Below, one piece after another: positions 1 through 41,367 of a DNA stretch of 64,000 bases (its first letter is position 1; every line of letters begins with the position of its first letter). The notes beneath the pieces are model-generated. The model saw nothing but the letters and a program-made list of their open reading frames with translations, did not search any database and was not told the origin of the DNA. The stretch is taken from NCBI GenBank assembly GCA_964446965.1, contig CAYUQD010000003.1:3989-67988 (forward strand). Direction: 5' to 3'. Source of the DNA: an uncultured Candidatus Saccharibacteria bacterium (GTDB lineage: Bacteria; Patescibacteriota; Minisyncoccia; Phycocordibacterales; UBA9973). A program made the position numbers and the translations under genes.

Positions 1-1121
1 AGTACAAGCACAATTGGAACAAATACAGATGATATTTTATCAGCTAGTGCTTGAATAGGGGCTTTACTTCCTTGTGCCTCTCCAACCATTTTTACTATAT
101 GGGCAAGCATTGTTTCTGAACCTATTTTAGTAGCTTTGAACGTAAATGAACCTGTGGTATTTATAGTTCCCGCTATAACAGTATCCCCAATAGTTTTTTC
201 TACAGGAACAGGCTCGCCTGTTACCATGGCTTCATCAACAAAAGAAGACCCGTCAGTAAGCACACCATCTACTGGTATTTTCCCTGCTGGCTTCACTACT
301 ATCAAATCCCCATGTACCACTTGGTCTATAGGTATTTCAATTTCTTTTCCTTCTCTAATAACTATTGCTGTTTTAGCTTGTAAATTAAGGAGTTTTTCAA
401 TCGCATCGCCTGTTTTTATTTTGGAGCGAGCCTCAAGGTATTTACCGAATGCGATAAACGCAATGACCACTATCGTTACATCATAGTAGGTGTGTTCAAC
501 ATTGATGAATGCACGAAGCGGTTCTTCAAAAGCAGTAACAATAAAACTGTATAAAAAAGCTACAGAAGTCCCAATACCGATAAGAGTATCCATATTTGCT
601 TTGCCGTAGCGGAGAAATCGATAAAATCCCATAAGATAGGGCTTCCCGACTACAAACAAAGTATATGTAGCAAAAATTGGAAGTAGGTGATGGAAAAATT
701 CATAGACAGTAGCCGACATCTCTCCAACTACCTTAAATTGAGCTAGAATATCCCATGCCATAACAAAAATACTAAAGATAGCGAGAGGTATAACTGATAC
801 AACCTTAGTTTTCATATCAGCTACTTCTTTCAATTTTTCTTTCTTGGATTGATTAAGTCCTAGATGAGAAGCATGTTCATCAGCTGACATTCCCATACTT
901 TCCGCTGTAGGAATTTCGAGTGTATATCCAAGCTTTTCAATCTTTTCAGAAAGATGGTGTGGACTAGTTTTACTTTCATCATAGGCAACCTTAGCAGTTT
1001 CTGTTCCATAATTTACTTCAACAGAATGTACGCCATCTGTCTTTTTGAAGGTCTTTTCAATAATGCTGGCACATGAAGCACAGTGCATTCCTTTTACTTT
1101 GTATGTGTTTGAGGTAGACAT
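1..1121 (-). CDS. copA: Copper/heavy-metal translocating P-type ATPase, N-terminal ~370 aa (gene runs off the window start)
   Basis: Manual minus-strand translation from the ATG at 1119-1121 gives MSTSNTYKVKGMHCASCASIIEK, the HMA GMxCxxC metal-binding motif. Multiple TM helices follow, and AMVTGEP marks the actuator/TGE region. Absent from the ORF track because it is open at the window edge. Stop of the upstream csoR is 1 nt away. Confidence 0.85.
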   Translation of the reverse strand, partial: MSTSNTYKVKGMHCASCASIIEKTFKKTDGVHSVEVNYGTETAKVAYDESKTSPHHLSEKIEKLGYTLEIPTAESMGMSADEHASHLGLNQSKKEKLKEVADMKTKVVSVIPLAIFSIFVMAWDILAQFKVVGEMSATVYEFFHHLLPIFATYTLFVVGKPYLMGFYRFLRYGKANMDTLIGIGTSVAFLYSFIVTAFEEPLRAFINVEHTYYDVTIVVIAFIAFGKYLEARSKIKTGDAIEKLLNLQAKTAIVIREGKEIEIPIDQVVHGDLIVVKPAGKIPVDGVLTDGSSFVDEAMVTGEPVPVEKTIGDTVIAGTINTTGSFTFKATKIGSETMLAHIVKMVGEAQGSKAPIQALADKISSVFVPIVLV

Positions 1122-14773: not shown

Positions 14774-16486
14774 ATGGTAGTCTTTGACGAAGAACAGCAA
14801 CAAAAGCGATACAACGAGCTTCGCACCCAAGAAGAAGAAAGTCTCGTCGCTACCCTCGCACAGACTCGGTACAATATCGACTCAGTCGATCTCTCGGGAC
14901 AACCCATCGACAACGACGCAATCCGCCTCCTCGAAGAAAAGGAAGCTCGTGCACTCGACGTCGGTCCCTACAAACTCATCGGCAAAAAACTCATGCTCGC
15001 CGTACGCTCTCCGCGCGCCGGAGGCGCCCAAAAGGCAAAAGAAATCCTCGAAGCAAAAGGATTTGAGGTGACATTTGTCATGGCAAGTGAGCGCAGTATC
15101 CAAAAGGTATGGAGTCGCTACGAAGACCTCTCGTTTGCAACCCGCTCGCGCGCCGGAGGACTCGACGTCTCGCCCGATGTCTTGGTCGAACTCTCTCAAA
15201 AGATCAAGACGACCGAGGACGCAGTCACCGAGATCGAGACTGCGCTCGCGGACGACTCGGGTACCCACCACCTCTCGCGAATACTTGAGATCATCCTTGG
15301 GGCAGGTATCGGTCTCGGCGCGTCTGATGTACACATCGAACCAATGGAAGACAAAGTTGAGCTACGGTTCCGTCTCGACGGTGTGCTCCGTGTGATCACC
15401 TATTTCAAACACACCACATACAAACAGATCAACACTCGTATCAAACTCCTCTCAGGTCTCAAACTCACCATCTCGAGCACGCCGCAAGACGGACGATTTA
15501 GCGCCTTCCTCGGCACTGGCCCTGATCAGATCGAGATATCATTTCGTACATCACTCATTCCAGGAGCATATGGCGAGAGTATCGTGCTCCGTATCCTCAA
15601 TCCAAAAAGTATCCGTGTCGGACTCGAAGACCTCGGTATATCAGCCCCGATGTTCGACATCTTTATGCGAGAGATCAAGAAGCCTAATGGCATGATATTG
15701 CTCACTGGACCGACAGGAAGTGGTAAGACAACGACACTCTATGCGTTCTTGCAAAAGATCTACAGCCCCGAAGTCAAAATCATCACCATCGAAGACCCAA
15801 TCGAGTATCACCTACCCGGTATTACACAGACACAAACTGATCACAAAAAAGGGTACACCTTCCTCGAAGGTTTGCGATCAGCACTGCGTCAGGACCCCGA
15901 CGTCATCATGGTGGGAGAAATCCGCGACCCCGAGACTGCAAAGATTGCCGTAGAGAGTGCGCTCACCGGTCACTTGGTCTTCTCTACCCTCCACACCAAT
16001 AATGCAAGTGGTGTGATCCCTCGCCTCATCGATCTCGAGGTCAACCCCAAGATCTTGGTATCCGCACTCTCGCTCTCGATCGCGCAACGACTCGTGCGCA
16101 CACTCTGTACACAGTGCCGTGCTGAACGCCCTGTCACCCCCGAAGAAAAATCCCTGATCGAAACAATCTGGGATACCGCAGTCGCAAATGGCAAAAATAT
16201 AGAACAGTATGGCGTGCAGCGCACTATCACCACACTCTGGAGTGCAGTCGGTTGCGAACACTGCAATGGTACTGGTTACAAAGGACGACTCGGACTCTTT
16301 GAGGTAATTCAAAATAGCGAAAGTATTGAACAGATAATCGTCAGCTCCCCAAGCGAGCGCGAGATCAAAAAAATCGCAGATACCCAAGGCACCCTCGACA
16401 TGCGCGAAGATGGCCTGGTAAAAATCCTGCAAGGAAAGACTGATTTTGAAGAAGTAAAAAGTGTCGTGGATCTATATGAAAAGTAA
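14774..16486 (+). CDS. pilB: Type IV pilus / type II secretion assembly ATPase (PilB/GspE family)
   Basis: N-terminal GspE-N-like domain; Walker A LLTGPTGSGKTTTLYA; Asp/His boxes; Walker B DPDVIMVGEIRD. Tetracysteine CTQC...CEHCNGTGYKGRLGLFEV is typical of PilB. Confidence 0.85.
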   Translation: MVVFDEEQQQKRYNELRTQEEESLVATLAQTRYNIDSVDLSGQPIDNDAIRLLEEKEARALDVGPYKLIGKKLMLAVRSPRAGGAQKAKEILEAKGFEVTFVMASERSIQKVWSRYEDLSFATRSRAGGLDVSPDVLVELSQKIKTTEDAVTEIETALADDSGTHHLSRILEIILGAGIGLGASDVHIEPMEDKVELRFRLDGVLRVITYFKHTTYKQINTRIKLLSGLKLTISSTPQDGRFSAFLGTGPDQIEISFRTSLIPGAYGESIVLRILNPKSIRVGLEDLGISAPMFDIFMREIKKPNGMILLTGPTGSGKTTTLYAFLQKIYSPEVKIITIEDPIEYHLPGITQTQTDHKKGYTFLEGLRSALRQDPDVIMVGEIRDPETAKIAVESALTGHLVFSTLHTNNASGVIPRLIDLEVNPKILVSALSLSIAQRLVRTLCTQCRAERPVTPEEKSLIETIWDTAVANGKNIEQYGVQRTITTLWSAVGCEHCNGTGYKGRLGLFEVIQNSESIEQIIVSSPSEREIKKIADTQGTLDMREDGLVKILQGKTDFEEVKSVVDLYEK

Positions 16487-32777: not shown

Positions 32778-34592
32778 CTAGAGAGCGTATGCAGCAGGAT
32801 TGCTTTTGCAAATCTGATATTCTCGCATCTTTTTTGCGACGGTTGCATTCACGACAGCACTGTTTGCATTGCAACCACCCCCTGCCCCAGCTTGGTAGAC
32901 ACGAAATGCTCCTTCGGCACTACCACCACACTGTTGCAACCCCTGTTTGAGTAGGTTGATACCTGCGGTTACGTTATCTTCGGGGACGAGAATGGTCTGC
33001 CATCCAGTGAATGGAACACTTCTATTGATCCAGTGTGTCCCCCCTTCTTTTACCCCCTCACGCCAAGCCGCAGTGTTGTATCCTGTTGGGAATTTTGTTA
33101 TCTGCATGAGTCCCCCACCTTTGCTAAATCTCCAGTCGAGACCGTATCCTGCTTGAGAAGAATTGATAGATTTGGGACAGATGTTGAGGGTTTGTGAATC
33201 AGTAAATTTTGTCCCATCGAGCTTGATACCACTTCCGACGAATGCAGTTCTCGAAGGCACGCCGCTCACACGAACATTCTCATCACATCCGATGACGTTG
33301 GGTACCCAACTAGACTCGACCGTGATGGTCGCTTTGACGAGGCAGGCATCGATGGACTTTTGTTGAGAGAGTATGGTGACCATGTTCACATACACGGGCT
33401 TTGCTTTAATCGTCTGCCCAGTGAGCGTCTGATAGAATGCGGGATCGATGACTGCTTTTTCTACCCCCACCTCCACACTCGCCACATTAATACTATTCTC
33501 CACCAACTTCGGATTGATTGTATTGAGAATGAGATACGCCGAGAGTGCCAGCAATAACCCAATCAATGCAGTCTTGAATCCTTCTTTAGACTTCGCTTGA
33601 ATGAACGGAACATCAGAGGTGAGAATTGCATACCCTTCATACATCAACCGCAACACCAACACCACTGCAGTGAGCCCAATCAATGTCTTGAAGGCAAAGT
33701 TCAAAAATCCATTGATATCACAGACTGCATTTTCACCAATCTTTCCCTCAAGTTTCTGTTGTGCACACAAATCTGGATCCATCAGTACTGCAAGTCCAGG
33801 CCATGGTGCAAGCAAGTGATAGCTCTTTGCATCAAATGCTGCTTGTTCTGCTTGGCTCCCTGCCCCGATATATCCCTTGGTACTATCGAAGTCTCCGGCG
33901 CGGGAGTCGAGGGTTGTGGTTGTGCCTTTTTGTTTGATGATGTGGCGAAAGAAGTATTTTTTGTCCGGGGTGAGGCCGCTGATGTTCCAACGATAGGTCC
34001 CATCATCGCTGATTCCTTCGAGATCAGTCCCTGATCCTGTATGAGCAACTGCCACGAGCTTGTCGCTCGGTCCACCATCTGTTACGAAGGGTGATCGGGA
34101 ATATTCAAGTTCTATCTTGAGGTTGTTGACACTCGGATACACACTCGTATCTATTTTGCCCGAGATCGTCGCAGTCTGTCCGGTCGTATCAAAAGTGAGT
34201 GGCCATTTGTAGAATGACGCCGTCGCGTTGCCAGTGTTGACGATGAGAGTAGTCGTGACAGTGGTAGCAAATCCTGACATTCCGATACCTCCGCCCGGGA
34301 GTTTGAGCACTGAGAAGTAGTATGTGCGGTTAGTCGCATACGCGCTCCCCGCAATAGTCCATACGACACTACCATTGGTTGCAGACTGGATATTTGTGCT
34401 CGCTGGTGCGACTGGTGGAACGGGGTTGGGACCGTTGTAGAGTTCAAACCGAGCAGTAGCGTCGGTGACGCCGGTCATCGTCACGACGATACTAGTGGGT
34501 GTCTGTGTTGCGGTGAGTGGATACATCTCCGCAGAGGCAGATGTGGTGCAGAGAGAGAAAACAAATATTAAAAAGAGAAATAGTTTTTTCAT
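32778..34592 (-). CDS. Fusion protein: signal peptide, FN3-like domains, VirB2/pilin-like two-helix TM hairpin, C-terminal lytic transglycosylase (SLT/VirB1-like)
   Basis: Signal peptide MKKLFLFLIFVFSLCTTSASA. TM hairpin FLNFAFKTLIGLTAVVLVLRLMYEGY...FKTALIGLLLALSAYLILNTINP. C-terminal SLT motifs ATITVESSW (catalytic Glu-Ser), GLMQITKFPTGYNTAAW, YQAGAGG. Confidence 0.7.
   Translation of the reverse strand: MKKLFLFLIFVFSLCTTSASAEMYPLTATQTPTSIVVTMTGVTDATARFELYNGPNPVPPVAPASTNIQSATNGSVVWTIAGSAYATNRTYYFSVLKLPGGGIGMSGFATTVTTTLIVNTGNATASFYKWPLTFDTTGQTATISGKIDTSVYPSVNNLKIELEYSRSPFVTDGGPSDKLVAVAHTGSGTDLEGISDDGTYRWNISGLTPDKKYFFRHIIKQKGTTTTLDSRAGDFDSTKGYIGAGSQAEQAAFDAKSYHLLAPWPGLAVLMDPDLCAQQKLEGKIGENAVCDINGFLNFAFKTLIGLTAVVLVLRLMYEGYAILTSDVPFIQAKSKEGFKTALIGLLLALSAYLILNTINPKLVENSINVASVEVGVEKAVIDPAFYQTLTGQTIKAKPVYVNMVTILSQQKSIDACLVKATITVESSWVPNVIGCDENVRVSGVPSRTAFVGSGIKLDGTKFTDSQTLNICPKSINSSQAGYGLDWRFSKGGGLMQITKFPTGYNTAAWREGVKEGGTHWINRSVPFTGWQTILVPEDNVTAGINLLKQGLQQCGGSAEGAFRVYQAGAGGGCNANSAVVNATVAKKMREYQICKSNPAAYAL
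33472..33910. repeat. Intragenic direct repeat, copy A (~440 bp, near-identical to 35101..35550)
   Basis: A core of ~235 bp is identical base for base (ctacccccacctccacactcgcc...aaggcaaagttcaaaaa). There is a short divergent patch, then ~140 bp more at high identity. Encodes the shared TM hairpin. Confidence 0.8.
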
Positions 34593-34632
34593 CTAATATC
34601 GAGAGGATTATAGATGTATTGTACTACGAACA

Positions 34633-36276
34633 TTACTTTCCGTTTACTGACCAGTGCCAAGCTTCGCTCGGAAGATTTTTGAACCCATACTTTGCCGCAT
34701 TGATAGATAGCCATACATAACAAGGATTGCTATGGTCACGCTGCCCTATTCGTGAACCGTTGCAACTAAAATCAATCGCCATTCCTCGCTCGTGCATTGA
34801 GTGTCCAGGACGAGCTGTGGGAGGTCGGCACGATGTAGATGGTGTCGATTCATCAGGGCATCCGTGAGCTACACGCAACTGCTTTTGACGTATTGTAGAA
34901 CGTGATCCGTATCCCGTGAGGATGATATTGTTATTTTTTGCAGCGGCGATCATAGCAGTTAGTTTTTGGGCGATTGATTTGCACACATTAATTTTATTTG
35001 GTGTACCAAATGTAGTGACATCAACAAATCCTTCGGGGCAGGATTTTGTATCCCCTCCCACTGCATATATGTTGTTGGGTTCGAGTTCAGTTTCTTCATC
35101 TACCCCCACCTCCACACTCGCCACATTAATACTATTCTCCACCAACTTCGGATTGATTGTATTGAGAATGAGATACGCCGAGAGTGCCAGCAATAACCCA
35201 ATCAATGCAGTCTTGAATCCTTCTTTAGACTTCGCTTGAATGAACGGAACATCAGAGGTGAGAATTGCATACCCTTCATACATCAACCGCAACACCAACA
35301 CCACTGCAGTGAGCCCAATCAATGTCTTGAAGGCAAAGTTCAAAAAACCATTGATATCACAGACACTATTTTCTGATACTGTCTTCTCAACGTACTTCTT
35401 TTGATAACAGAGATCTGGATCCATCAGTACTGCAAGTCCAGGCCATGGTGCAAGCAAGTGATAACTCTTTGCATCAAATGCTGCTTTTTCTGCTTGGCTT
35501 CCTGCCCCGATATAACCCTTGGTACTATCGAAGTCTCCGGCGCGGGAGTTCAATACCGTCGCCGTACCTTTGAGGAGAACAACATGACGAAAATAATATT
35601 TTGTACCAGGCGTGAGTCCTGAGATATTCCAATAATAAGAACCGTCAGAGGCTACACCTTCGACACTACCTCCATCAGTAGTGTGCGCTTTTGCGATGAG
35701 TTTGTCGCTTGGACCCGCAGGAGTGGTGAAAGGGGTTCTCGCGTAGTGGAGTTGGAGCTCGAGCGCGCTTGTGTTGGGATACTTTGTGGTGTCGATGAGT
35801 CCTGAGATCATCGCAGTCTGTCCGGTGGGGACGAATGTCAGTGGCCAGCGATAGGTGTCGTCGGGGATACCTGCAGAACCGTTGATGATGGTTTGTGTTG
35901 CGGTGACCGGTTCATCTGTACCGGGAGAGATACCGTTGAGTTTGACTGCTCGGATATAGAGCGTTGTAGCGGGGTTGATACCAGATATCGACCATGCGAC
36001 GACATTGTTGGTGACAGGTTTGATCAGATCGCTCGCAGTACCGACAGGGAGAGTGTTTTGGGTATTTTGTGCAGCAATCGTAGAAAAAGGGGCCCTCAAT
36101 ATCTCGAGCTTGTATTGTGCGGTGTCGTTGGGTACACCAGTCATCGTCGCGGTCACAGCTGTCGTGGTGACAGAGATAGTGAGTGGGTATGTGGCAGCAT
36201 GTGCTGTGTCGATACGTGCCACACCCCCAACGAGGAAGTTTGCGACAAGTAGTAAAAGGAGCAGGAATGGTTTCAT
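34633..36276 (-). CDS. Paralogous fusion protein: signal peptide, FN3-like domains, same pilin-like TM hairpin, C-terminal M15-family (VanY/LAS) zinc peptidase
   Basis: The central ~150 aa is near-identical to the neighbouring paralog. C-terminal GYGSRSTIRQKQL...PGHSMHERGMAIDF...SEAWHWS has the HxxxxxxD and H zinc ligands of LAS/M15 D,D- or L,D-peptidases. Confidence 0.7.
   Translation of the reverse strand: MKPFLLLLLLVANFLVGGVARIDTAHAATYPLTISVTTTAVTATMTGVPNDTAQYKLEILRAPFSTIAAQNTQNTLPVGTASDLIKPVTNNVVAWSISGINPATTLYIRAVKLNGISPGTDEPVTATQTIINGSAGIPDDTYRWPLTFVPTGQTAMISGLIDTTKYPNTSALELQLHYARTPFTTPAGPSDKLIAKAHTTDGGSVEGVASDGSYYWNISGLTPGTKYYFRHVVLLKGTATVLNSRAGDFDSTKGYIGAGSQAEKAAFDAKSYHLLAPWPGLAVLMDPDLCYQKKYVEKTVSENSVCDINGFLNFAFKTLIGLTAVVLVLRLMYEGYAILTSDVPFIQAKSKEGFKTALIGLLLALSAYLILNTINPKLVENSINVASVEVGVDEETELEPNNIYAVGGDTKSCPEGFVDVTTFGTPNKINVCKSIAQKLTAMIAAAKNNNIILTGYGSRSTIRQKQLRVAHGCPDESTPSTSCRPPTARPGHSMHERGMAIDFSCNGSRIGQRDHSNPCYVWLSINAAKYGFKNLPSEAWHWSVNGK
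35101..35550. repeat. Intragenic direct repeat, copy B
   Basis: See copy A; offset 1629 bp. Confidence 0.8.
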
Positions 36277-37232
36277 TAGTTAAATAAAAGGGTAAAGGTC
36301 TTTTCGACGTGTTGGAGTCCGTAGGTGACCGTGGTGATGGCGAGGTCGAGGATACTCTGTCCGCGTCTGTCTGGTCGGGATAGACCGATCTGGTTTGCCT
36401 GAGGGCGCGACACACTCTCTCCATCAACCTTGAGATCAAAGGTGAGGTCTGCGAGTACGGTGCGAGGAATAGAAAAGAAATACGGCTCAAAATGGAGTAC
36501 TATCCCCTGCTCGATGAAGGGAATGGTCGAGAGGTAGCCATGAGCATAGTCGATGTATCCTTGGCGAGTCTCGTACGCAATGACTTGTGGCGTGCGCAGA
36601 GGACTCAGTCGACTCATCCCTGCTCCTGCAAATGACCCTCCTCCGATCGAAACCTCGATGGTTTCTTGGGGGTTAAATTCGTTGTGTTTGATCAGGAGAC
36701 TCGACTTGCCAAAGCCGCTCTCTGCAACGAGTGCAGAACCATTGCGAGACCAGTTATAACTCAACCCTTTTGGGGCGCTCGCAGAAGGGATGACACTGTA
36801 GCGGATGAGGCCGTTGACGGGCAGGAGCGCCTTGCCTTTGTAGAATGGGTGTGTGTAGCTGTCGACCGCCTCCCAGAGCAAGTCGATACTTGCCGGACGC
36901 AAGACGAGTGTTCCGCTTGCTGATGTTCCATTTCCTGAAGCGGTAATACCAATAGTCCCTGTTGCGCCTGCTGCTGGAGCTACAACAGCGACACTAGTCG
37001 TCCCTGTCCCCTTTGCGATGACGACATTGTTGTATGTCCACGAGATGTTGGCTTGGTTGAGATCCATTGCATAGCTCGTTGCGGTCAGTGTGACAGTACT
37101 CCCCGGAGTAGGATTTAGAGGGATAGTGTCGATTGAGATGTCGCCATCAATACTCTGCGCATGAGCAGTACCTACTAGTACAAAAATCAGTATTAGGGTT
37201 GCAATACATGTGCGCACGAATGCCATATGCAT
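36276..37232 (-). CDS. Secreted protein of unknown function (T4SS-cluster member)
   Basis: Start placed at MHMAFVRTCIATLILIFVLVGTAHAQ (signal peptide); the longer ORF to 37544 is an unlikely extension. Beta-rich, Ser/Thr/Gly-rich N-terminal half. Its stop overlaps the downstream start. Confidence 0.5.
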   Translation of the reverse strand: MHMAFVRTCIATLILIFVLVGTAHAQSIDGDISIDTIPLNPTPGSTVTLTATSYAMDLNQANISWTYNNVVIAKGTGTTSVAVVAPAAGATGTIGITASGNGTSASGTLVLRPASIDLLWEAVDSYTHPFYKGKALLPVNGLIRYSVIPSASAPKGLSYNWSRNGSALVAESGFGKSSLLIKHNEFNPQETIEVSIGGGSFAGAGMSRLSPLRTPQVIAYETRQGYIDYAHGYLSTIPFIEQGIVLHFEPYFFSIPRTVLADLTFDLKVDGESVSRPQANQIGLSRPDRRGQSILDLAITTVTYGLQHVEKTFTLLFN

Positions 37233-37263
37233 CAGTATAGCACTACAGATAGGTATAGAGATG

Positions 37264-39075
37264 CTAGGACGAGCGGTTTTGTTCGCTAAATTCTTTCTTT
37301 GCGGCACGGATGGAGATGACTTGGCTTGGGTCAGAGGTAATAATCTGGTCTTCGGTATAGGACGCGATGATCTTGATGGCGACATGTTTGAGTCCTGCAA
37401 AGAATATTCCTTCTCCAACACCACTCTCGAGAAGTAGGAACTTTTCTTCATCGGTGAGGTTGAATGTCTTTTGGAGGACATCCATTGTCGACGGAGACTG
37501 TTTGAGCAGGAGTTGAATGGATGAGTTGGTGACGATCGGGACACCGTATGGACTCTTCATGAAGTCCCCCACGTCCTGCGTGATCGTACAGAGTCCGAGG
37601 TAATATTTGCGACCTCGTTTTGCGATCGAGTAGAGGAACGACGCAGTGTCATCACTCTTCATCATCCACCATGCCTCATCGACGACGAGCAATCGCTTTT
37701 TGAGCTCCTTGCGAACGGCATTCCAGATGAAATGAGTGACGATGTACATCGCCGCTGGTTTGAGATCATCCTCCATGTCGCGAACGGAGAAGACTACAAA
37801 CTTTTTGTTGATGTCGACGTTGGTTGGTTGGTTGATGAAGGTCGCCCAAGATCCGTGTGTGTACTTGGTGAGACGTTGGAGGATGGATTCTGTCCCCTCC
37901 ATCCCAGAGAGCACCATCTCAAAGTCTGAGAGAAGTGGTGGCTCGATCGTTGCAAAGTCGCTCTCTGGACTAATGTCTTTGAGTGAGTACGTCTCGGTGA
38001 TGGCGCGGTCGATGAGTGAGTCTTCTTCGGGAGAGAGTCCTCCGAGCATGATACGGAATAGTCCGACGAGGTTGATGATGTTGCTGCGCAATACATCTGC
38101 AGGAGATTCGTCGACACGAGGGATCGGTAGGTCAAATGGGTTGATGTGGTTGTCTGATGAAAGTGAGATATTGAAATAGCGTCCACCGATCGCTTCGGCG
38201 AGGTATTCATACTCTCGTTCTGGGTCGATGACGATGACATCGGTATCGAACATGAGGGTACGGATGATCTCGAGTTTGGTCGCATAGGATTTGCCGGCAC
38301 CAGACTTGGCAAAGATGATGGAGTTGTAGTTCTCGAGCGAGAATCGGTCAAAGATCACGAGTGATGAGTTGTGACGGTTCACCCCATAGAGGATACCTTC
38401 GTCCCCGGTGAGATCAAATGAGACAAATGGGAACATACTCGAGATGGGTTCTGAGTTGAGTTTCTGGGTGATACCAAGCTTGTCAGTACCGAGCGGGACA
38501 ACGGTCTTGAAGCCGTCTTCTTCTTGGAAGAGTGCGGGCTTGATATATATCATCTTGCTCTCGAGCATGCTCTTGATCTCGCTCTCTGTACGGAACAAAT
38601 CGTTCTCGTTGTCAGCGTAGATAGTGATATAGAAGCCGATGTTGAACATCTTTTCTTGGGCTTGGGTCAGGCTATCACGGAGCTCCTCGAGGTCTTGGTA
38701 GGCAGTATCGAGCATTGGGTCGCGAACAACACCCTTTTGTTGGCGGACGATGATCTGACTTTCGACTTCGGCGATCTTTTTTTGGAAGTGTTTGAGGAGT
38801 TCGGCAGTCTCGATCGGATTGACGTAGATTGCCACATCAAAGATCTTGTCGAGGTTGATGATGGGAGTGAGCCAGTTGTCGGTGAGAAAGCGTGGATATG
38901 ATATGACAAAAAAGGTTCGCACAATCTTGTCCCCGATACGCATGCTCTTTGGGGTGATCTCGATTGCAGAGGGTGCGATCTTGTCCGCGAGCTCCATAGT
39001 CGCCCATTCATACACCTGTGAGGGTGCGATAGGGAGAGATTTATTTTCTTTCTTTTTGCTACCAAAGAGTGACAT
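37264..39075 (-). CDS. VirB4/TrbE/CagE-family type IV secretion ATPase (short monoderm PrgJ/TcpF-like form)
   Basis: Walker A FAKSGAGKSY, Walker B LLVVDEAWWMM (the VirB4 DEAW motif), CTITQDVGDF. The N-terminal region (RTFFVISYPRFLTDNWLTPI) is typical of Gram-positive VirB4 homologs. Confidence 0.85.
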   Translation of the reverse strand: MSLFGSKKKENKSLPIAPSQVYEWATMELADKIAPSAIEITPKSMRIGDKIVRTFFVISYPRFLTDNWLTPIINLDKIFDVAIYVNPIETAELLKHFQKKIAEVESQIIVRQQKGVVRDPMLDTAYQDLEELRDSLTQAQEKMFNIGFYITIYADNENDLFRTESEIKSMLESKMIYIKPALFQEEDGFKTVVPLGTDKLGITQKLNSEPISSMFPFVSFDLTGDEGILYGVNRHNSSLVIFDRFSLENYNSIIFAKSGAGKSYATKLEIIRTLMFDTDVIVIDPEREYEYLAEAIGGRYFNISLSSDNHINPFDLPIPRVDESPADVLRSNIINLVGLFRIMLGGLSPEEDSLIDRAITETYSLKDISPESDFATIEPPLLSDFEMVLSGMEGTESILQRLTKYTHGSWATFINQPTNVDINKKFVVFSVRDMEDDLKPAAMYIVTHFIWNAVRKELKKRLLVVDEAWWMMKSDDTASFLYSIAKRGRKYYLGLCTITQDVGDFMKSPYGVPIVTNSSIQLLLKQSPSTMDVLQKTFNLTDEEKFLLLESGVGEGIFFAGLKHVAIKIIASYTEDQIITSDPSQVISIRAAKKEFSEQNRSS

Positions 39076-39095: not shown

Positions 39096-39737
39096 TTATT
39101 TGGAGTTTACGGTTGCTTGGGTAGTACTTTCTCCGGGATTGAATGTTTTGTACAGAAGTTCGATCATTTCTTCGGTACCGAGTTGTGCGACACGGAGGCC
39201 GACACGCGAGAGTCCTTGTTCGACGACATTGACGCGTTCTTCGAGTTGGGTGCGCTGTTCTTCGAAGTCGCTCACTGTTTGCGCAGCGGTCTGTTTGGAG
39301 CCGAGGAATGAAAATACCTTACCAATCCCCGTTTGTTGGCTGAGTATCGGAGGGATATATGGGATCACCACAAAGAAATTCTTGCGCATGATGTTGACTT
39401 GGTCGGTGAAGCTCTGGATGAACTGGATGTACTCGCGTGTCTGTACTTGGAGGAGGGACTCAGTTTGCTGCTTGAGACGGTTTTGCAATGTCAGAATATA
39501 TGGACGGATGTCGTATCGTCTACTCTGGATCACGATCTGTATTGGGAAGTCGAGTGTGTTGAGGAAGTTTTGGAACTGCATGAGGGTTGCGCGCTGTTCG
39601 TCATAACTCTTGAGGGAGAGGTTGATCGACGAGACGAGGACGGCCATTGCGAGCGTGCCGTCTTTGAGGACGACGATACCATCGCGAACTTCTTTGACGG
39701 GGACGAATTGTTGGGCAGGTGTGCCAAAGGTTGCCAT
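39096..39737 (-). CDS. Hypothetical T4SS-associated soluble protein (resembles a VirB4 N-terminal-domain-like fold; inference)
   Basis: 213 aa, no TM. VKEVRDGIVVLKDGTLAMAVLVSSINLSLKSYDEQ echoes the N-terminal pattern of VirB4 proteins. Tightly coupled between the PrgI-like gene and virB4. Confidence 0.45.
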   Translation of the reverse strand: MATFGTPAQQFVPVKEVRDGIVVLKDGTLAMAVLVSSINLSLKSYDEQRATLMQFQNFLNTLDFPIQIVIQSRRYDIRPYILTLQNRLKQQTESLLQVQTREYIQFIQSFTDQVNIMRKNFFVVIPYIPPILSQQTGIGKVFSFLGSKQTAAQTVSDFEEQRTQLEERVNVVEQGLSRVGLRVAQLGTEEMIELLYKTFNPGESTTQATVNSK

Positions 39738-39739
39738 AA

Positions 39740-40150
39740 TTATTTGGGAGTATTGGGGTCAATCACATCGAGACTCCACGAGAGAGTCTTGAGCTTGCTC
39801 TCCGTCAGTGTACCACGACCATTGCTTGCGATTGCTTCGGGTACTGCGCGACCAGGAGTTTTTTGTTCTTGTTTGTGCCAGAGATAGAGGCGTGAACGCG
39901 AATAATATTTGATAAATGACTCGAGGACGTTGATGAATGGCTTGTCATTGTAGCGAAAGAATGTGAGCGCAAGTGCGAGTGCCGCAAGTGCCGGAGCGAC
40001 AAAGATCGAGATGAATATCGGGAGGAACTTGAATGCGAGATAGACGAGACCTGCACCTCCGGCGAGATAGACGAACTGTCGGAACGTGAACGGTCCGAAT
40101 ACTTTGTCTTCGATATCGATAAATTGGGGAACCTTGAACTGCATAGGCAT
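39740..40150 (-). CDS. PrgI/VirB3-like small membrane protein
   Basis: MPMQFKVPQFIDIEDKVFGPFTFRQFVYLAGGAGLVYLAF matches the conserved PrgI-family N-terminus and is followed by two TM helices. Located directly upstream of the VirB4-like gene, as VirB3 is in T4SS loci. Confidence 0.55.
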   Translation of the reverse strand: MPMQFKVPQFIDIEDKVFGPFTFRQFVYLAGGAGLVYLAFKFLPIFISIFVAPALAALALALTFFRYNDKPFINVLESFIKYYSRSRLYLWHKQEQKTPGRAVPEAIASNGRGTLTESKLKTLSWSLDVIDPNTPK

Positions 40151-40232
40151 AGTATACTATGCCAAGGACAAAGTTTATAAAACTTATATCACGCTTGACT
40201 TCTTAGGTCGCCTGTACGACTATTACCACTAT

Positions 40233-40841
40233 ATGAGCATGGAATCCCCCCAACAAAAAGCAAAGCGAGTAATTAATGAACATCCTGGTCTCGATCCGGA
40301 TTTCGAGAAGAAATTTGAAGAGGTCCGACCAGTACTTGAACAGTACGAAAAGGAGGGTAAGTTCGATAATATTGCAGAACGCGCAGCTGAAAATAATGCA
40401 AAATTTGCAGCGCAAAGAAGAGAACGTGAAGAAATGGAAGAGCCTCAGATCGCTGAAGTCATTTCAACGATTCTTCATACAGAGAGATCTCCAGAAAAGT
40501 CTGAAACCTCACAAGGTCATGTGAAGTACGATGGTTCTTGGACAGATGAGTCTAAAAAGCCTCGCAGTATTATCTTTGGAGCAGATCCAACTAAAGAAGA
40601 GATAGAAGCTGCATATAAAAAGTTACCTAAAGAAGAGAGTTACTCACAAAAAATGGCAAAAAATCATCTCTCAATGGTGGAACACCTAACGCTTGATACT
40701 AACGAAAAAAGAACACGAAACAGAATTAATTTCATGCAACGGGCAGATAGAATCGAAGCAGATCGTCAAAAAAAGAAGACGGTTGCTCAGCAATTGATGC
40801 AGTGGTGGAAAGGTTTGGACGATAAAGATAGGCTCAACTAA
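40233..40841 (+). CDS. Hypothetical highly charged protein, opposite strand inside the cluster
   Basis: About 200 aa, Lys/Glu-rich (MSMESPQQKAKRV...). Start placed at the internal Met so it does not overlap the PrgI-like gene. AT-rich. Confidence 0.4.
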   Translation: MSMESPQQKAKRVINEHPGLDPDFEKKFEEVRPVLEQYEKEGKFDNIAERAAENNAKFAAQRREREEMEEPQIAEVISTILHTERSPEKSETSQGHVKYDGSWTDESKKPRSIIFGADPTKEEIEAAYKKLPKEESYSQKMAKNHLSMVEHLTLDTNEKRTRNRINFMQRADRIEADRQKKKTVAQQLMQWWKGLDDKDRLN

Positions 40842-40845
40842 TCTT

Positions 40846-41367
40846 CTACTTATCAGGAATTTCTCGATAGGGATCGATCGATTTGATGCCACTAGGAGCG
40901 GATGATGGTGCGGCTGAAGGAGTCGATGGCGCAGGTGTTGCTGAAGGATCGGTAGTATAGGTGCGCTTCGTGGGAGCGAGCGTCGATGGAGTAGTCATGG
41001 TTTGATTGAGGCGAGCGAGCATGTCGGATGGGGTTGGGGCTGAAGTAGACGCCTGGGTAGGCTCAGATAATTGAACATTGCCATTTTTAAGAAATGTATA
41101 CATCTTATCAATAATTTTTTCCATATTTCCCTTTTCAAGTAACAAAGAAAGCTGTGTTTCTAAGTTCTCTCCCAACTGTTTTATATCATTTTTCTTTAAA
41201 AGAAATAATGTCATCTCCCCATCAAGTATTGTAGATACTTCTTCTGTAATATTGAATTCTTTTTTTAATTCATCCAAGAATGTATCAATTTGTGCAAGCA
41301 TACCAAATTCCTTGGAATTTGGATCAAGAGATTCTAATAGTGTAAGCGTTTCCTCGTTTATATCCAT
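40846..41367 (-). CDS. Hypothetical protein with a Pro/Ser/Thr/Ala-rich C-terminal tail
   Basis: 173 aa. Helical N-terminal half, then SAPTPSD...PSATPAPSTPSAAPSSAPSG low-complexity tail. Coupled to the upstream VirB6-like gene. Confidence 0.45.
   Translation of the reverse strand: MDINEETLTLLESLDPNSKEFGMLAQIDTFLDELKKEFNITEEVSTILDGEMTLFLLKKNDIKQLGENLETQLSLLLEKGNMEKIIDKMYTFLKNGNVQLSEPTQASTSAPTPSDMLARLNQTMTTPSTLAPTKRTYTTDPSATPAPSTPSAAPSSAPSGIKSIDPYREIPDK

Follow-up and report, generated by a model that had tools for sequence, protein, structure and literature searches.

Within a 64,000-nucleotide (nt) stretch of contig CAYUQD010000003.1 from an uncultured Candidatus Saccharibacteria bacterium (hereafter the window), two adjacent minus-strand genes, A and B, located in a type IV secretion system (T4SS) gene cluster, encode proteins that appear to combine a VirB2-like membrane core with two different C-terminal cell-wall enzymes, and share a central segment that is nearly identical at the DNA level. 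The identity of the two cores is recombinational in origin. We propose, with a probability of about 0.8, that it arose by interlocus gene conversion, in at least two tracts and probably with A as the donor, within a modular family of pilin-hydrolase proteins.

The near-identity covers positions 33460-33908 in A and 35099-35550 in B, and its boundaries are sharp: in the adjoining 60 nt, 28/60 positions differ on the 5' side (in the sense of the genes) and 45/60 on the 3' side. Self-BLAST aligned the two copies throughout (449 vs 452 nt, 94.5% identity), and a repeat finder returned two blocks, 33455-33734 = 35094-35373 (280 nt, 98%) and 33754-33907 = 35396-35549 (154 nt, 94%). The copies agree without a mismatch over at most 248 consecutive nt (33460-33707 = 35099-35346). 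The shared segment consists of a young tract of 266 nt with a single difference, which is synonymous (at 33708); a patch of 45 nt in A and 48 nt in B, where about half of the bases differ (49%) and B has one extra codon; and an older tract of 138 nt with five differences (~96% identity), two of which are non-synonymous. The original prediction, made from the letters of the window, had described a direct repeat of ~440 bp with ~235 bp identical base for base, followed by a short divergent patch and ~140 bp of near-identity; this description was borne out, with coordinates right to ~12 nt, and the self-BLAST that it had recommended confirmed two copies and the length of the identity. Self-BLAST and the repeat finder showed exactly two copies in the 64-kb window, with no third one and no larger family of repeats, and no RNA element was found at the locus by a Rfam gathering-threshold scan and a tRNA search, which gave only two distant tRNAs.

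The proteins encoded by A and B fall into three zones, i.e., ~230 N-terminal residues that are ~44% identical, ~150 central residues that are 93-100% identical, and C-termini that cannot be aligned. These C-termini match unrelated Pfam domains, SLT in A (27 bits; cutoff 21.3) and VanY in B (40.9 bits; cutoff 25). The divergence that had been noticed on both sides of the repeat therefore holds for the N-terminal regions, whereas the C-terminal regions are different domains. As they are non-homologous enzyme modules, the picture changes to that of domain-swapped paralogs. The DNA identity between A and B ends at codon 377/378 (33460), inside a disordered linker that constitutes the module junction.

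The original prediction had offered two explanations for the identity, gene conversion or strong purifying selection on the core. In the N-terminal regions of A and B, the same codon is used at 37/99 positions with identical residues (37%), and fourfold-degenerate sites match at 19/64, i.e., they are saturated. In the core, the same codon is used at 40/44 positions of the older tract and 86/87 of the young tract (126/131 in total), and fourfold sites are identical at 21/23 and 40/41, respectively (61/64 in total). At the N-terminal rate of 0.37, 87 consecutive same-codon matches have a probability of P ~ 6e-38, and a Fisher test of codon sharing in the core vs the N-terminus gave p = 6e-24. 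When the core of A or B was compared with the genes P0002, P0004 and P0068 (L-numbered loci and P-numbered genes are relatives from other genomes), same-codon usage was 38-62%. Since the synonymous sites of the core are identical within the window, yet free to vary between genomes, selection at the protein level cannot explain the identity and recombination can. Purifying selection as its cause is ruled out by this synonymous-site test, while gene conversion agrees with the synonymous identity, with the presence of two tracts and with the grouping of cores by genome described below. The third idea of the original prediction, a recent duplication, does not fit the window pair, as the N-terminal synonymous sites are saturated.

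It could still be imagined that strong purifying selection, acting on the protein or on a DNA or RNA element embedded in the core, keeps the two copies identical without recombination, as the core is the best-conserved part of the family at the protein level, with invariant NTINP and other columns. We regard this as exceedingly improbable, because fourfold sites that are identical at 61/64 positions in the window belong to codons that vary between genomes, because the core evolves faster than DnaA between genomes, and because the patch inside it is 49% different. Indeed, identity to related genomes is 88-98% for VirB4 and 70-85% for DnaA, but 43-80% for the pilin-hydrolase core and 27-42% for the fibronectin type III (FN3) region. 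An exhaustive search of 1.84 billion representatives found no protein more than 79% identical to the core.

The same pattern recurs in other genomes. A scan of GTDB species representatives gave 51 related loci, among which a hidden Markov model of the core identified tandem pairs with strong cores at L003, L007, L018, L019, L025, L028, L030, L033 and L034, in addition to the window (n = 10). Within these 10 pairs the cores are 84-100% identical at the nucleotide level, with longest exact runs of 54-1085 nt, and the C-termini are unrelated. First, the tandem partner has the closest core for 20/20 genes (89-100%, vs 56-89% for the best other genome). Second, the C-terminus shows no significant similarity to that of the partner in any pair, and has a clear homologue in another genome for 18/20 genes. 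Third, a neighbour-joining tree built from 46 cores places the two members of each of the 10 pairs together as sister taxa (bootstrap 96-100). Fourth, L025_g2 and L033_g2 have orthologous N-terminal regions (70% amino-acid identity, vs 31-40% to their own partners), yet the cores of these two pairs group by genome (97% and 85% nucleotide identity within, 76-78% between). As the orthology of these second-gene N-termini makes the duplication older than the split of the two genomes, the grouping of the cores by genome is the classical signature of interlocus conversion. This comparison of paralog pairs in related genomes, which had been proposed along with the original prediction, thus revealed a pattern of concerted evolution of the core in 10/10 pairs. 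The subfamily is of modest size, with 183 clusters at 50% identity (E <= 1e-10), and 142/150 best matches are of the fused type, with at least 400 amino acids (aa) and the core in the middle.

At the syntenic locus of related genomes, we observed one (L001, L005, L006 and L057) or two (window and L003) pilin-hydrolase genes, with heads that are SLT-like, VanY, YkuD, SLT + NlpC/P60 or VanY + SLT, depending on the genome. This variation is consistent with genes having been gained and lost through crossover between the repeated cores.

The identity stops at the junction with the enzyme head. In 8/10 pairs the longest identical run (213-1085 nt) ends at most four codons from the end of the core, and the 5' end of this run varies among the 10 pairs, lying anywhere between the interior of the core and the start codon. 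Replacement of the head itself was observed between L005 and L057, two strains whose sequences agree at 99.74% of positions over 8006 nt downstream and at 96.7% over 3078 nt upstream. They differ by an exact exchange of the enzyme module, which is a VanY head of 472 nt in L005 and an SLT-like head of 739 nt in L057. On the 5' side the sequences part 13 codons past NTINPKLV, the motif that closes the second transmembrane segment (TM2), and on the 3' side they rejoin 6 nt short of the end of the gene. The exchange independently identifies the junction as a recombination breakpoint. In the same comparison, L057:2400-2800, which corresponds to the second FN3 domain (FN3-2) and the start of the core of P0015/P0068, has 60 mismatches in 400 nt, vs ~1-2 per 200 nt elsewhere upstream; with this FN3-2/core-5' region, the P0015/P0068 gene has a second hotspot of recombination or diversification.

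The heads are diverse. Among 43 aligned family members we counted VanY (12), SLT (8), NlpC/P60 (6), YkuD (4), SLT_2 (4), Amidase_5 (4, overlapping NlpC/P60 matches where checked), Peptidase_M15_4 (3) and SLT_4 (1). An Amidase_2 head occurs in L033, GDSL-lipase families are listed for P0029, and altogether the related loci contain at least nine Pfam families of cell-wall enzymes. From their domain matches, four clear pairs would associate a glycan cleaver with a peptide or amide cleaver, namely the window (VanY + SLT), L003 (SLT + NlpC/P60), L007 (SLT-like + NlpC/P60) and L033 (SLT + Amidase_2). This combination is unproven as a rule for every pair, five heads belonging to an uncharacterised family. 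The gene order differs among these pairs, as VanY is first and SLT second in the window, and the SLT-type gene is first in L003, L007 and L033. The uncharacterised heads (~200 aa) have invariant E-G-F and T-N-N-P-G-N-I-G-N motifs and are usually paired with an NlpC/P60 paralog. They gave no match to Pfam, to the PDB (group profile) or to PHROGs (two members), and were unreached by an iterative search seeded with SLT; they are presumably cell-wall enzymes as well.

As regards the history of the window pair, the C-terminus of A is 71% identical to that of P0002 and the C-terminus of B is 77% identical to that of P0068, while between A and B the cores reach 96-100% identity. The patch of B shares its extra residue and 71% of its positions with P0068 and P0015 (YQKKY-IEKTISEDAI), two genes of the VanY lineage. 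Relative to P0068, the identity of B amounts to 77% for the head and 71% for the patch, as against 42% and 59% for the two segments of the core, which is normally the best-conserved part. As B keeps the patch and the head of the VanY lineage together with an A-type core, A was probably the donor in the conversion.

Several observations weigh against the conversion that we propose or against parts of it. First, in L003, L028 and L030 the identity also takes in the whole N-terminus, running from the start codon up to the junction. A fresh duplication with a subsequent head swap would give this result, and it explains these three pairs as well as conversion does. Second, the direction of transfer is deduced from a patch of 13-14 residues and from domain-level identities. 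Third, the closest orthologues of the window are 49-61% identical in the protein collections, too distant to date the conversion or to show this pair before and after it. Fourth, the match of the shared centre to the T4SS_pilin profile is sub-threshold (A, 18.7 bits; B, 19.3 bits; curated cutoff, 26.6); the earlier label of a pilin-like core is reasonable nonetheless. Fifth, a de Bruijn assembler can emit a collapsed node twice, and "0 differences in 248 nt" may therefore overstate the identity; the original prediction was right to warn of assembly collapse here.

The first point raises the possibility that identity is the primary state, i.e., that a very recent duplication, either of an entire gene or of the segment with the core, was followed by replacement of the N- and C-terminal parts through recombination with diverged alleles. 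The exchange of heads between L005 and L057 demonstrates that such replacements occur in the family, and the FN3 region is, as mentioned above, also a hotspot of recombination or diversification between strains. Nevertheless, we consider this scenario unlikely for the window, where two tracts of unequal divergence surround a lineage-specific patch, an arrangement that a single duplication does not produce. It would also require that ~700 nt of N-terminal sequence were swapped for something 44% identical, without an identified donor (the best N-terminal match from outside is 39-42% identical). Furthermore, the L025 and L033 pairs predate speciation, yet their cores still group by genome.

The fifth point raises the possibility of an assembly artefact, namely one collapsed graph node written twice, or a chimera of VanY-type and SLT-type strain alleles of a single-gene locus. 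The window is a metagenome-assembled contig, its exact 248-nt repeat is longer than the usual k-mers and than 150-nt reads, only one gene occupies the corresponding position in its closest relatives, L001 and L005, and the comparison of L005 with L057 shows that VanY and SLT-like heads can be allelic. Still, an artefact is very unlikely for the following reasons. A tandem path needs a real junction that links the B stop to the A start, and, we reason, such a junction would be absent from two alleles of a single-gene locus. Copy-specific differences are kept in and beside the repeat (1 + 5 single-nucleotide differences, and the patch). The same anatomy occurs in nine other assemblies from different projects, with intermediates of 84-97% nucleotide identity that are not made by collapse, and the junction between gene 1 and gene 2 of L003 was assembled independently in a second sample, L004. 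Interlocus gene conversion thus remains our preferred explanation of the identity between A and B.

The AlphaFold2 model of A (mean predicted local distance difference test score, pLDDT, 79.5) comprises a signal-peptide helix, two beta-sandwiches, a long helical hairpin, a low-confidence linker and a helical enzyme domain (Table 1). Foldseek matched its N-terminal half to tandem FN3 domains of the PDB; the whole model matched FN3 domains alone, with nothing informative on the hairpin among the matches listed, and NCBIfam gave no useful name for A or B. The hydrophobic stretches of A (1-23, 295-318 and 338-361), the last two of which are separated by the Lys-rich loop YEGYAILTSDVPFIQAKSKEGFK, lead to a predicted N-out/C-out topology, in which the FN3 domains and the enzyme would both be outside the membrane. 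The T4SS_pilin profile aligns to aa 293-359 of A, and among the 43 aligned family members T4SS_pilin was found in nine and TrbC in two (E < 1e-3), these VirB2/TrbC-type pilin profiles being Pfam PF18895 and PF04956. A and B share with VirB2 the signal peptide and two hydrophobic helices separated by a short basic loop. They are not small stand-alone pilins (~70-130 aa when mature): with total lengths of 604 and 547 aa, both have a hairpin that is preceded by FN3 domains (~230 aa) and followed by an enzyme of 155-227 aa. The pilin homology of A and B themselves is plausible, but short of established. Catalytic-type motifs are present in both heads, i.e., ES (VESSW) at aa 426 and GLMQ at aa 494 in A, and H..D (SMHERGMAID) at aa 493-502 and HxH (WHW) at aa 540 in B. 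From their domains, their location in the cluster and their predicted exposure, A and B are likely VirB1-like, T4SS-associated peptidoglycan hydrolases.

A and B belong to a chromosomal, origin-proximal T4SS cluster. In the sense of the genes, it begins with a 1055-aa protein, a 173-aa protein, a 136-aa open reading frame (ORF), a TrsD/TraC-like protein and a VirB4-like ATPase, and continues with a ~311-aa protein, B, A and a 421-aa protein, followed by yidC, dnaA, dnaN and the gene for a class A penicillin-binding protein. This order is kept in L001, L003, L005 and L057. The pilin-hydrolase genes have the VirB4-like, TrsD-like and PrgI-position genes as upstream neighbours, and no stand-alone pilin is annotated in the syntenic clusters examined. 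No immunity gene directly follows either head: B is followed by a 40-nt spacer and then by A, and A by the conserved 421-aa gene. RuvB, which we counted in favour of recombination, is encoded in the window.

Table 1. Positions of the genes, domains and conversion tracts of the window (coordinates of the 64,000-nt stretch), of the segments of the AlphaFold2 model of A, and of the uncharacterised heads in related loci.
Feature	Position	Strand	Description or basis
Gene A	32778-34592	-	ORF, 604 aa: signal peptide, 2 x FN3-like, VirB2-like hairpin, linker, SLT lytic transglycosylase
Gene B	34633-36276	-	ORF, 547 aa: architecture as gene A, but C-terminus is a VanY/LAS zinc peptidase
Intergenic spacer	34593-34632	-	40 nt, B stop to A start; unique junction defining the tandem arrangement
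Helical hairpin of A, VirB2-like membrane core	33516-33716	-	aa 293-359; AlphaFold2 helices, hydropathy, T4SS_pilin alignment
Low-confidence linker of A	33435-33506	-	aa 363-386, pLDDT <50
SLT-like enzyme head of A	32784-33401	-	orthologous to heads in other genomes; unrelated to the head of B
VanY/LAS peptidase head of B	34678-34989	-	77% identical to P0068 over the C-terminal region
Young conversion tract, copy A	33460-33725	-	266 nt; encodes end of Cys loop, TM1, loop, TM2 and first part of linker
Young conversion tract, copy B	35099-35364	-	266 nt
Unconverted patch, A	33726-33770	-	45 nt; variable Cys-Cys loop AQQK-LEGKIGENAV, P0010/P0002/P0037 type
Unconverted patch, B	35365-35412	-	48 nt, one extra codon; YQKKY-VEKTVSENSV
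Older conversion tract, copy A	33771-33908	-	138 nt; from just past FN3-2 to first conserved Cys
Older conversion tract, copy B	35413-35550	-	138 nt
VirB4-like ATPase (TraG P-loop domain)	37264-39075	-	Pfam P-loop_TraG E = 6.6e-25; synteny in L001, L003, L005
TrsD/TraC-like gene	39096-39737	-	NCBIfam TrsD and VirB4 N-terminal matches
136-aa ORF at PrgI/VirB3-like position of relatives	39740-40150	-	assigned by position; Pfam PrgI, TraC-like on syntenic genes of relatives
A model, signal-peptide helix	aa 2-14		AlphaFold2
A model, two beta-sandwiches	aa 26-120, 133-236		AlphaFold2
A model, long helical hairpin	aa 293-325, 329-359		AlphaFold2
A model, low-confidence linker	aa 363-386		AlphaFold2
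A model, helical enzyme domain	aa 398-603		AlphaFold2
Uncharacterised ~200-aa head	L018:2149-2763
Uncharacterised ~200-aa head	L028:6511-7128
Uncharacterised ~200-aa head	L030:4921-5550
Uncharacterised ~200-aa head	L025:866-1519
Uncharacterised ~200-aa head	L034:3716-4045

Further observations were made on the cluster and its surroundings. The VirB4-like protein (37264-39075) is 88-98% identical across the L001-L036 genomes, whose DnaA proteins are 70-85% and DnaN proteins 58-82% identical, while the neighbouring 311-aa and 421-aa proteins are merely 39-65% identical across genomes. The ORF at 36276-37544, as called mechanically from a GTG start (422 aa), shares 281 nt with the 3' end of the VirB4-like gene; as its orthologues have 311-316 aa, its true start is probably the ATG at 37211, which gives a signal-peptide-like N-terminus (MHMAFVRTC...). 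Between the gene at the PrgI position and the 173-aa gene (40846-41367), there are ~695 nt (40151-40845), vs ~27 nt in L001. This extra DNA, which holds a Lys/Glu-rich ORF on the opposite strand (40086-40841, 251 aa) with no Pfam match, looks like a lineage-specific insertion in the T4SS cluster. Finally, positions 14774-16486, ~20 kb from the T4SS cluster, encode a secretion ATPase of the type II secretion system (T2SS)/type IV pilus kind (T2SSE, E = 2e-113), and hence a type IV pilus/T2SS-like system and a T4SS both lie near the replication origin.

The process that we propose has well-known precedents. In Salmonella, RecA-dependent conversion between tufA and tufB leads to concerted evolution of these paralogs. 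As in such cases, A and B are more alike within a genome than orthologues are between genomes, including at synonymous sites, and their tracts are bounded by the loss of homology. Unlike concerted paralogs, only an internal module is homogenised here, between a fast-evolving N-terminus and non-homologous C-termini; furthermore, A and B are adjacent, lie in a secretion-system cluster, and show a pattern repeated in many genomes within one family. In bacteria, conversion between paralogs is in general well documented (survey PMC6053082). The mechanism is therefore textbook, while the family-level pattern appears to be undescribed.

In polymorphic toxin systems (CdiA-CT, Rhs-CT), a conserved N-terminal part receives different C-terminal modules, which are swapped at a fixed junction by homologous recombination. 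A and B resemble these systems of contact-dependent inhibition (CDI) and Rhs toxins in having a variable C-terminal module on a conserved part, joined at a fixed junction. They differ from them in that the heads are peptidoglycan enzymes of the housekeeping type, are not followed by an immunity gene, and were not seen as orphan cassettes. Membership in the polymorphic toxins was rejected because of the lack of immunity genes. In Neisseria, the pilE/pilS system produces antigenic variation of the pilin by gene conversion from silent donors, and PMC12102498 mentions T4SS paralog families of Anaplasma and Bartonella. In these systems as in ours, conversion acts on gene families for surface structures, but pilin antigenic variation diversifies them, whereas here the membrane core of two full-length genes is homogenised and the variable parts lie outside the tract.

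CwlT of ICEBs1 is a VirB1-like peptidoglycan hydrolase of a Gram-positive conjugative T4SS. Other Gram-positive VirB1-like hydrolases, which have two activities, are TraG of pIP501 and PrgK of pCF10, both cited in PMC12102498. A and B resemble TraG and PrgK as predicted membrane-anchored, extracytoplasmic hydrolases that are encoded in a T4SS cluster and combine glycan and peptide cleavage. They differ from them in that the two activities, carried by one polypeptide with a simple anchor in TraG and PrgK, are split over tandem paralogs with a VirB2-like hairpin as anchor and FN3 domains, and in that the peptide-cleaving partner varies (VanY, NlpC/P60 or Amidase_2).

Concerning Patescibacteria, PMC12102498 describes MPF-FATA-like T4SSs, often located beside dnaA, with VirB2-like pilins; arrays of these pilins that are divergent (mean 25% and maximum 54% aa identity within an array); and VirB1-like hydrolases associated with virB4 mainly in Paceibacteria. 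In Southlakia epibionticum, T4SS and pilin genes are essential for epibiotic growth, a result from the one strain tested (PMC10633639), and PMC12857230 acknowledges the pilin genes of Patescibacteria as a puzzle, since monoderm T4SSs are normally devoid of pilins. Our loci share with the pilin arrays so described the tandem organisation of genes for VirB2-like hairpins by virB4, near dnaA and with no recognisable relaxase nearby. They depart from these arrays in that the cores are 89-100% identical in a pair, and in that the hairpin lies within proteins of 450-900 aa with FN3 domains and a peptidoglycan hydrolase. The passages of PMC12102498, PMC10633639 and PMC12857230 returned by term searches make no mention of pilin-hydrolase fusions, a homogenised core, conversion or head swapping.

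We propose the following scenario. Intrachromosomal, non-reciprocal homologous recombination would have homogenised the segment of ~450 bp that encodes the hairpin and the region just upstream. B would first have possessed a P0068-like core, which A-type sequence then replaced on at least two occasions, earlier over 33771-33908 and more recently over 33460-33725, while the variable Cys-Cys loop in between stayed unconverted. The linker marks the end of the tract because the modules downstream are unrelated and offer no further homology. Both proteins might fit the single T4SS encoded with them, or assemble together, and a shared core would hence be tolerated or favoured, while the enzyme heads would stay different and cut different bonds of the cell wall. 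We infer this rationale of co-assembly, like the enzymatic roles of A and B, from domain content and gene neighbourhood. In addition, the conserved core could serve as the 5' homology arm for exchanging enzyme heads between alleles and between genomes.

These findings have practical consequences. Exact repeats of 0.2-1.1 kb in such clusters are predictable sites of contig breaks or mis-joins in metagenome-assembled genomes of the candidate phyla radiation, and they confound orthology calls and trees built from pilin-hydrolase proteins.

In the window and ~50 related loci, representing one lineage, all VirB2-like proteins detected in the part of the conserved, origin-proximal cluster that was examined are large fusions. 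Their pilin core evolves in concert within genomes, and their heads are swapped at a constant position in the linker, even where the flanks of two strains are ~99% identical. Tentatively, and with more doubt than belief, we consider that the hairpin core may be a true pilin, with A and B co-polymerising into the T4SS pilus or docking on it, and with the FN3 domains, as adhesion modules, and the interchangeable heads lying outside. If so, the structure would be a cell-wall-drilling filament by which epibionts breach the wall of the host, or their own. The identical core would be a selected universal adaptor, conversion keeping every paralog compatible with one machine, and also a recombination handle for shuffling the heads, in the manner of polymorphic toxin C-termini. 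Together, these data physically tie a predicted wall-degrading activity to a pilin-like component, and thereby provide a testable hypothesis on how ultrasmall bacteria open the cell wall.

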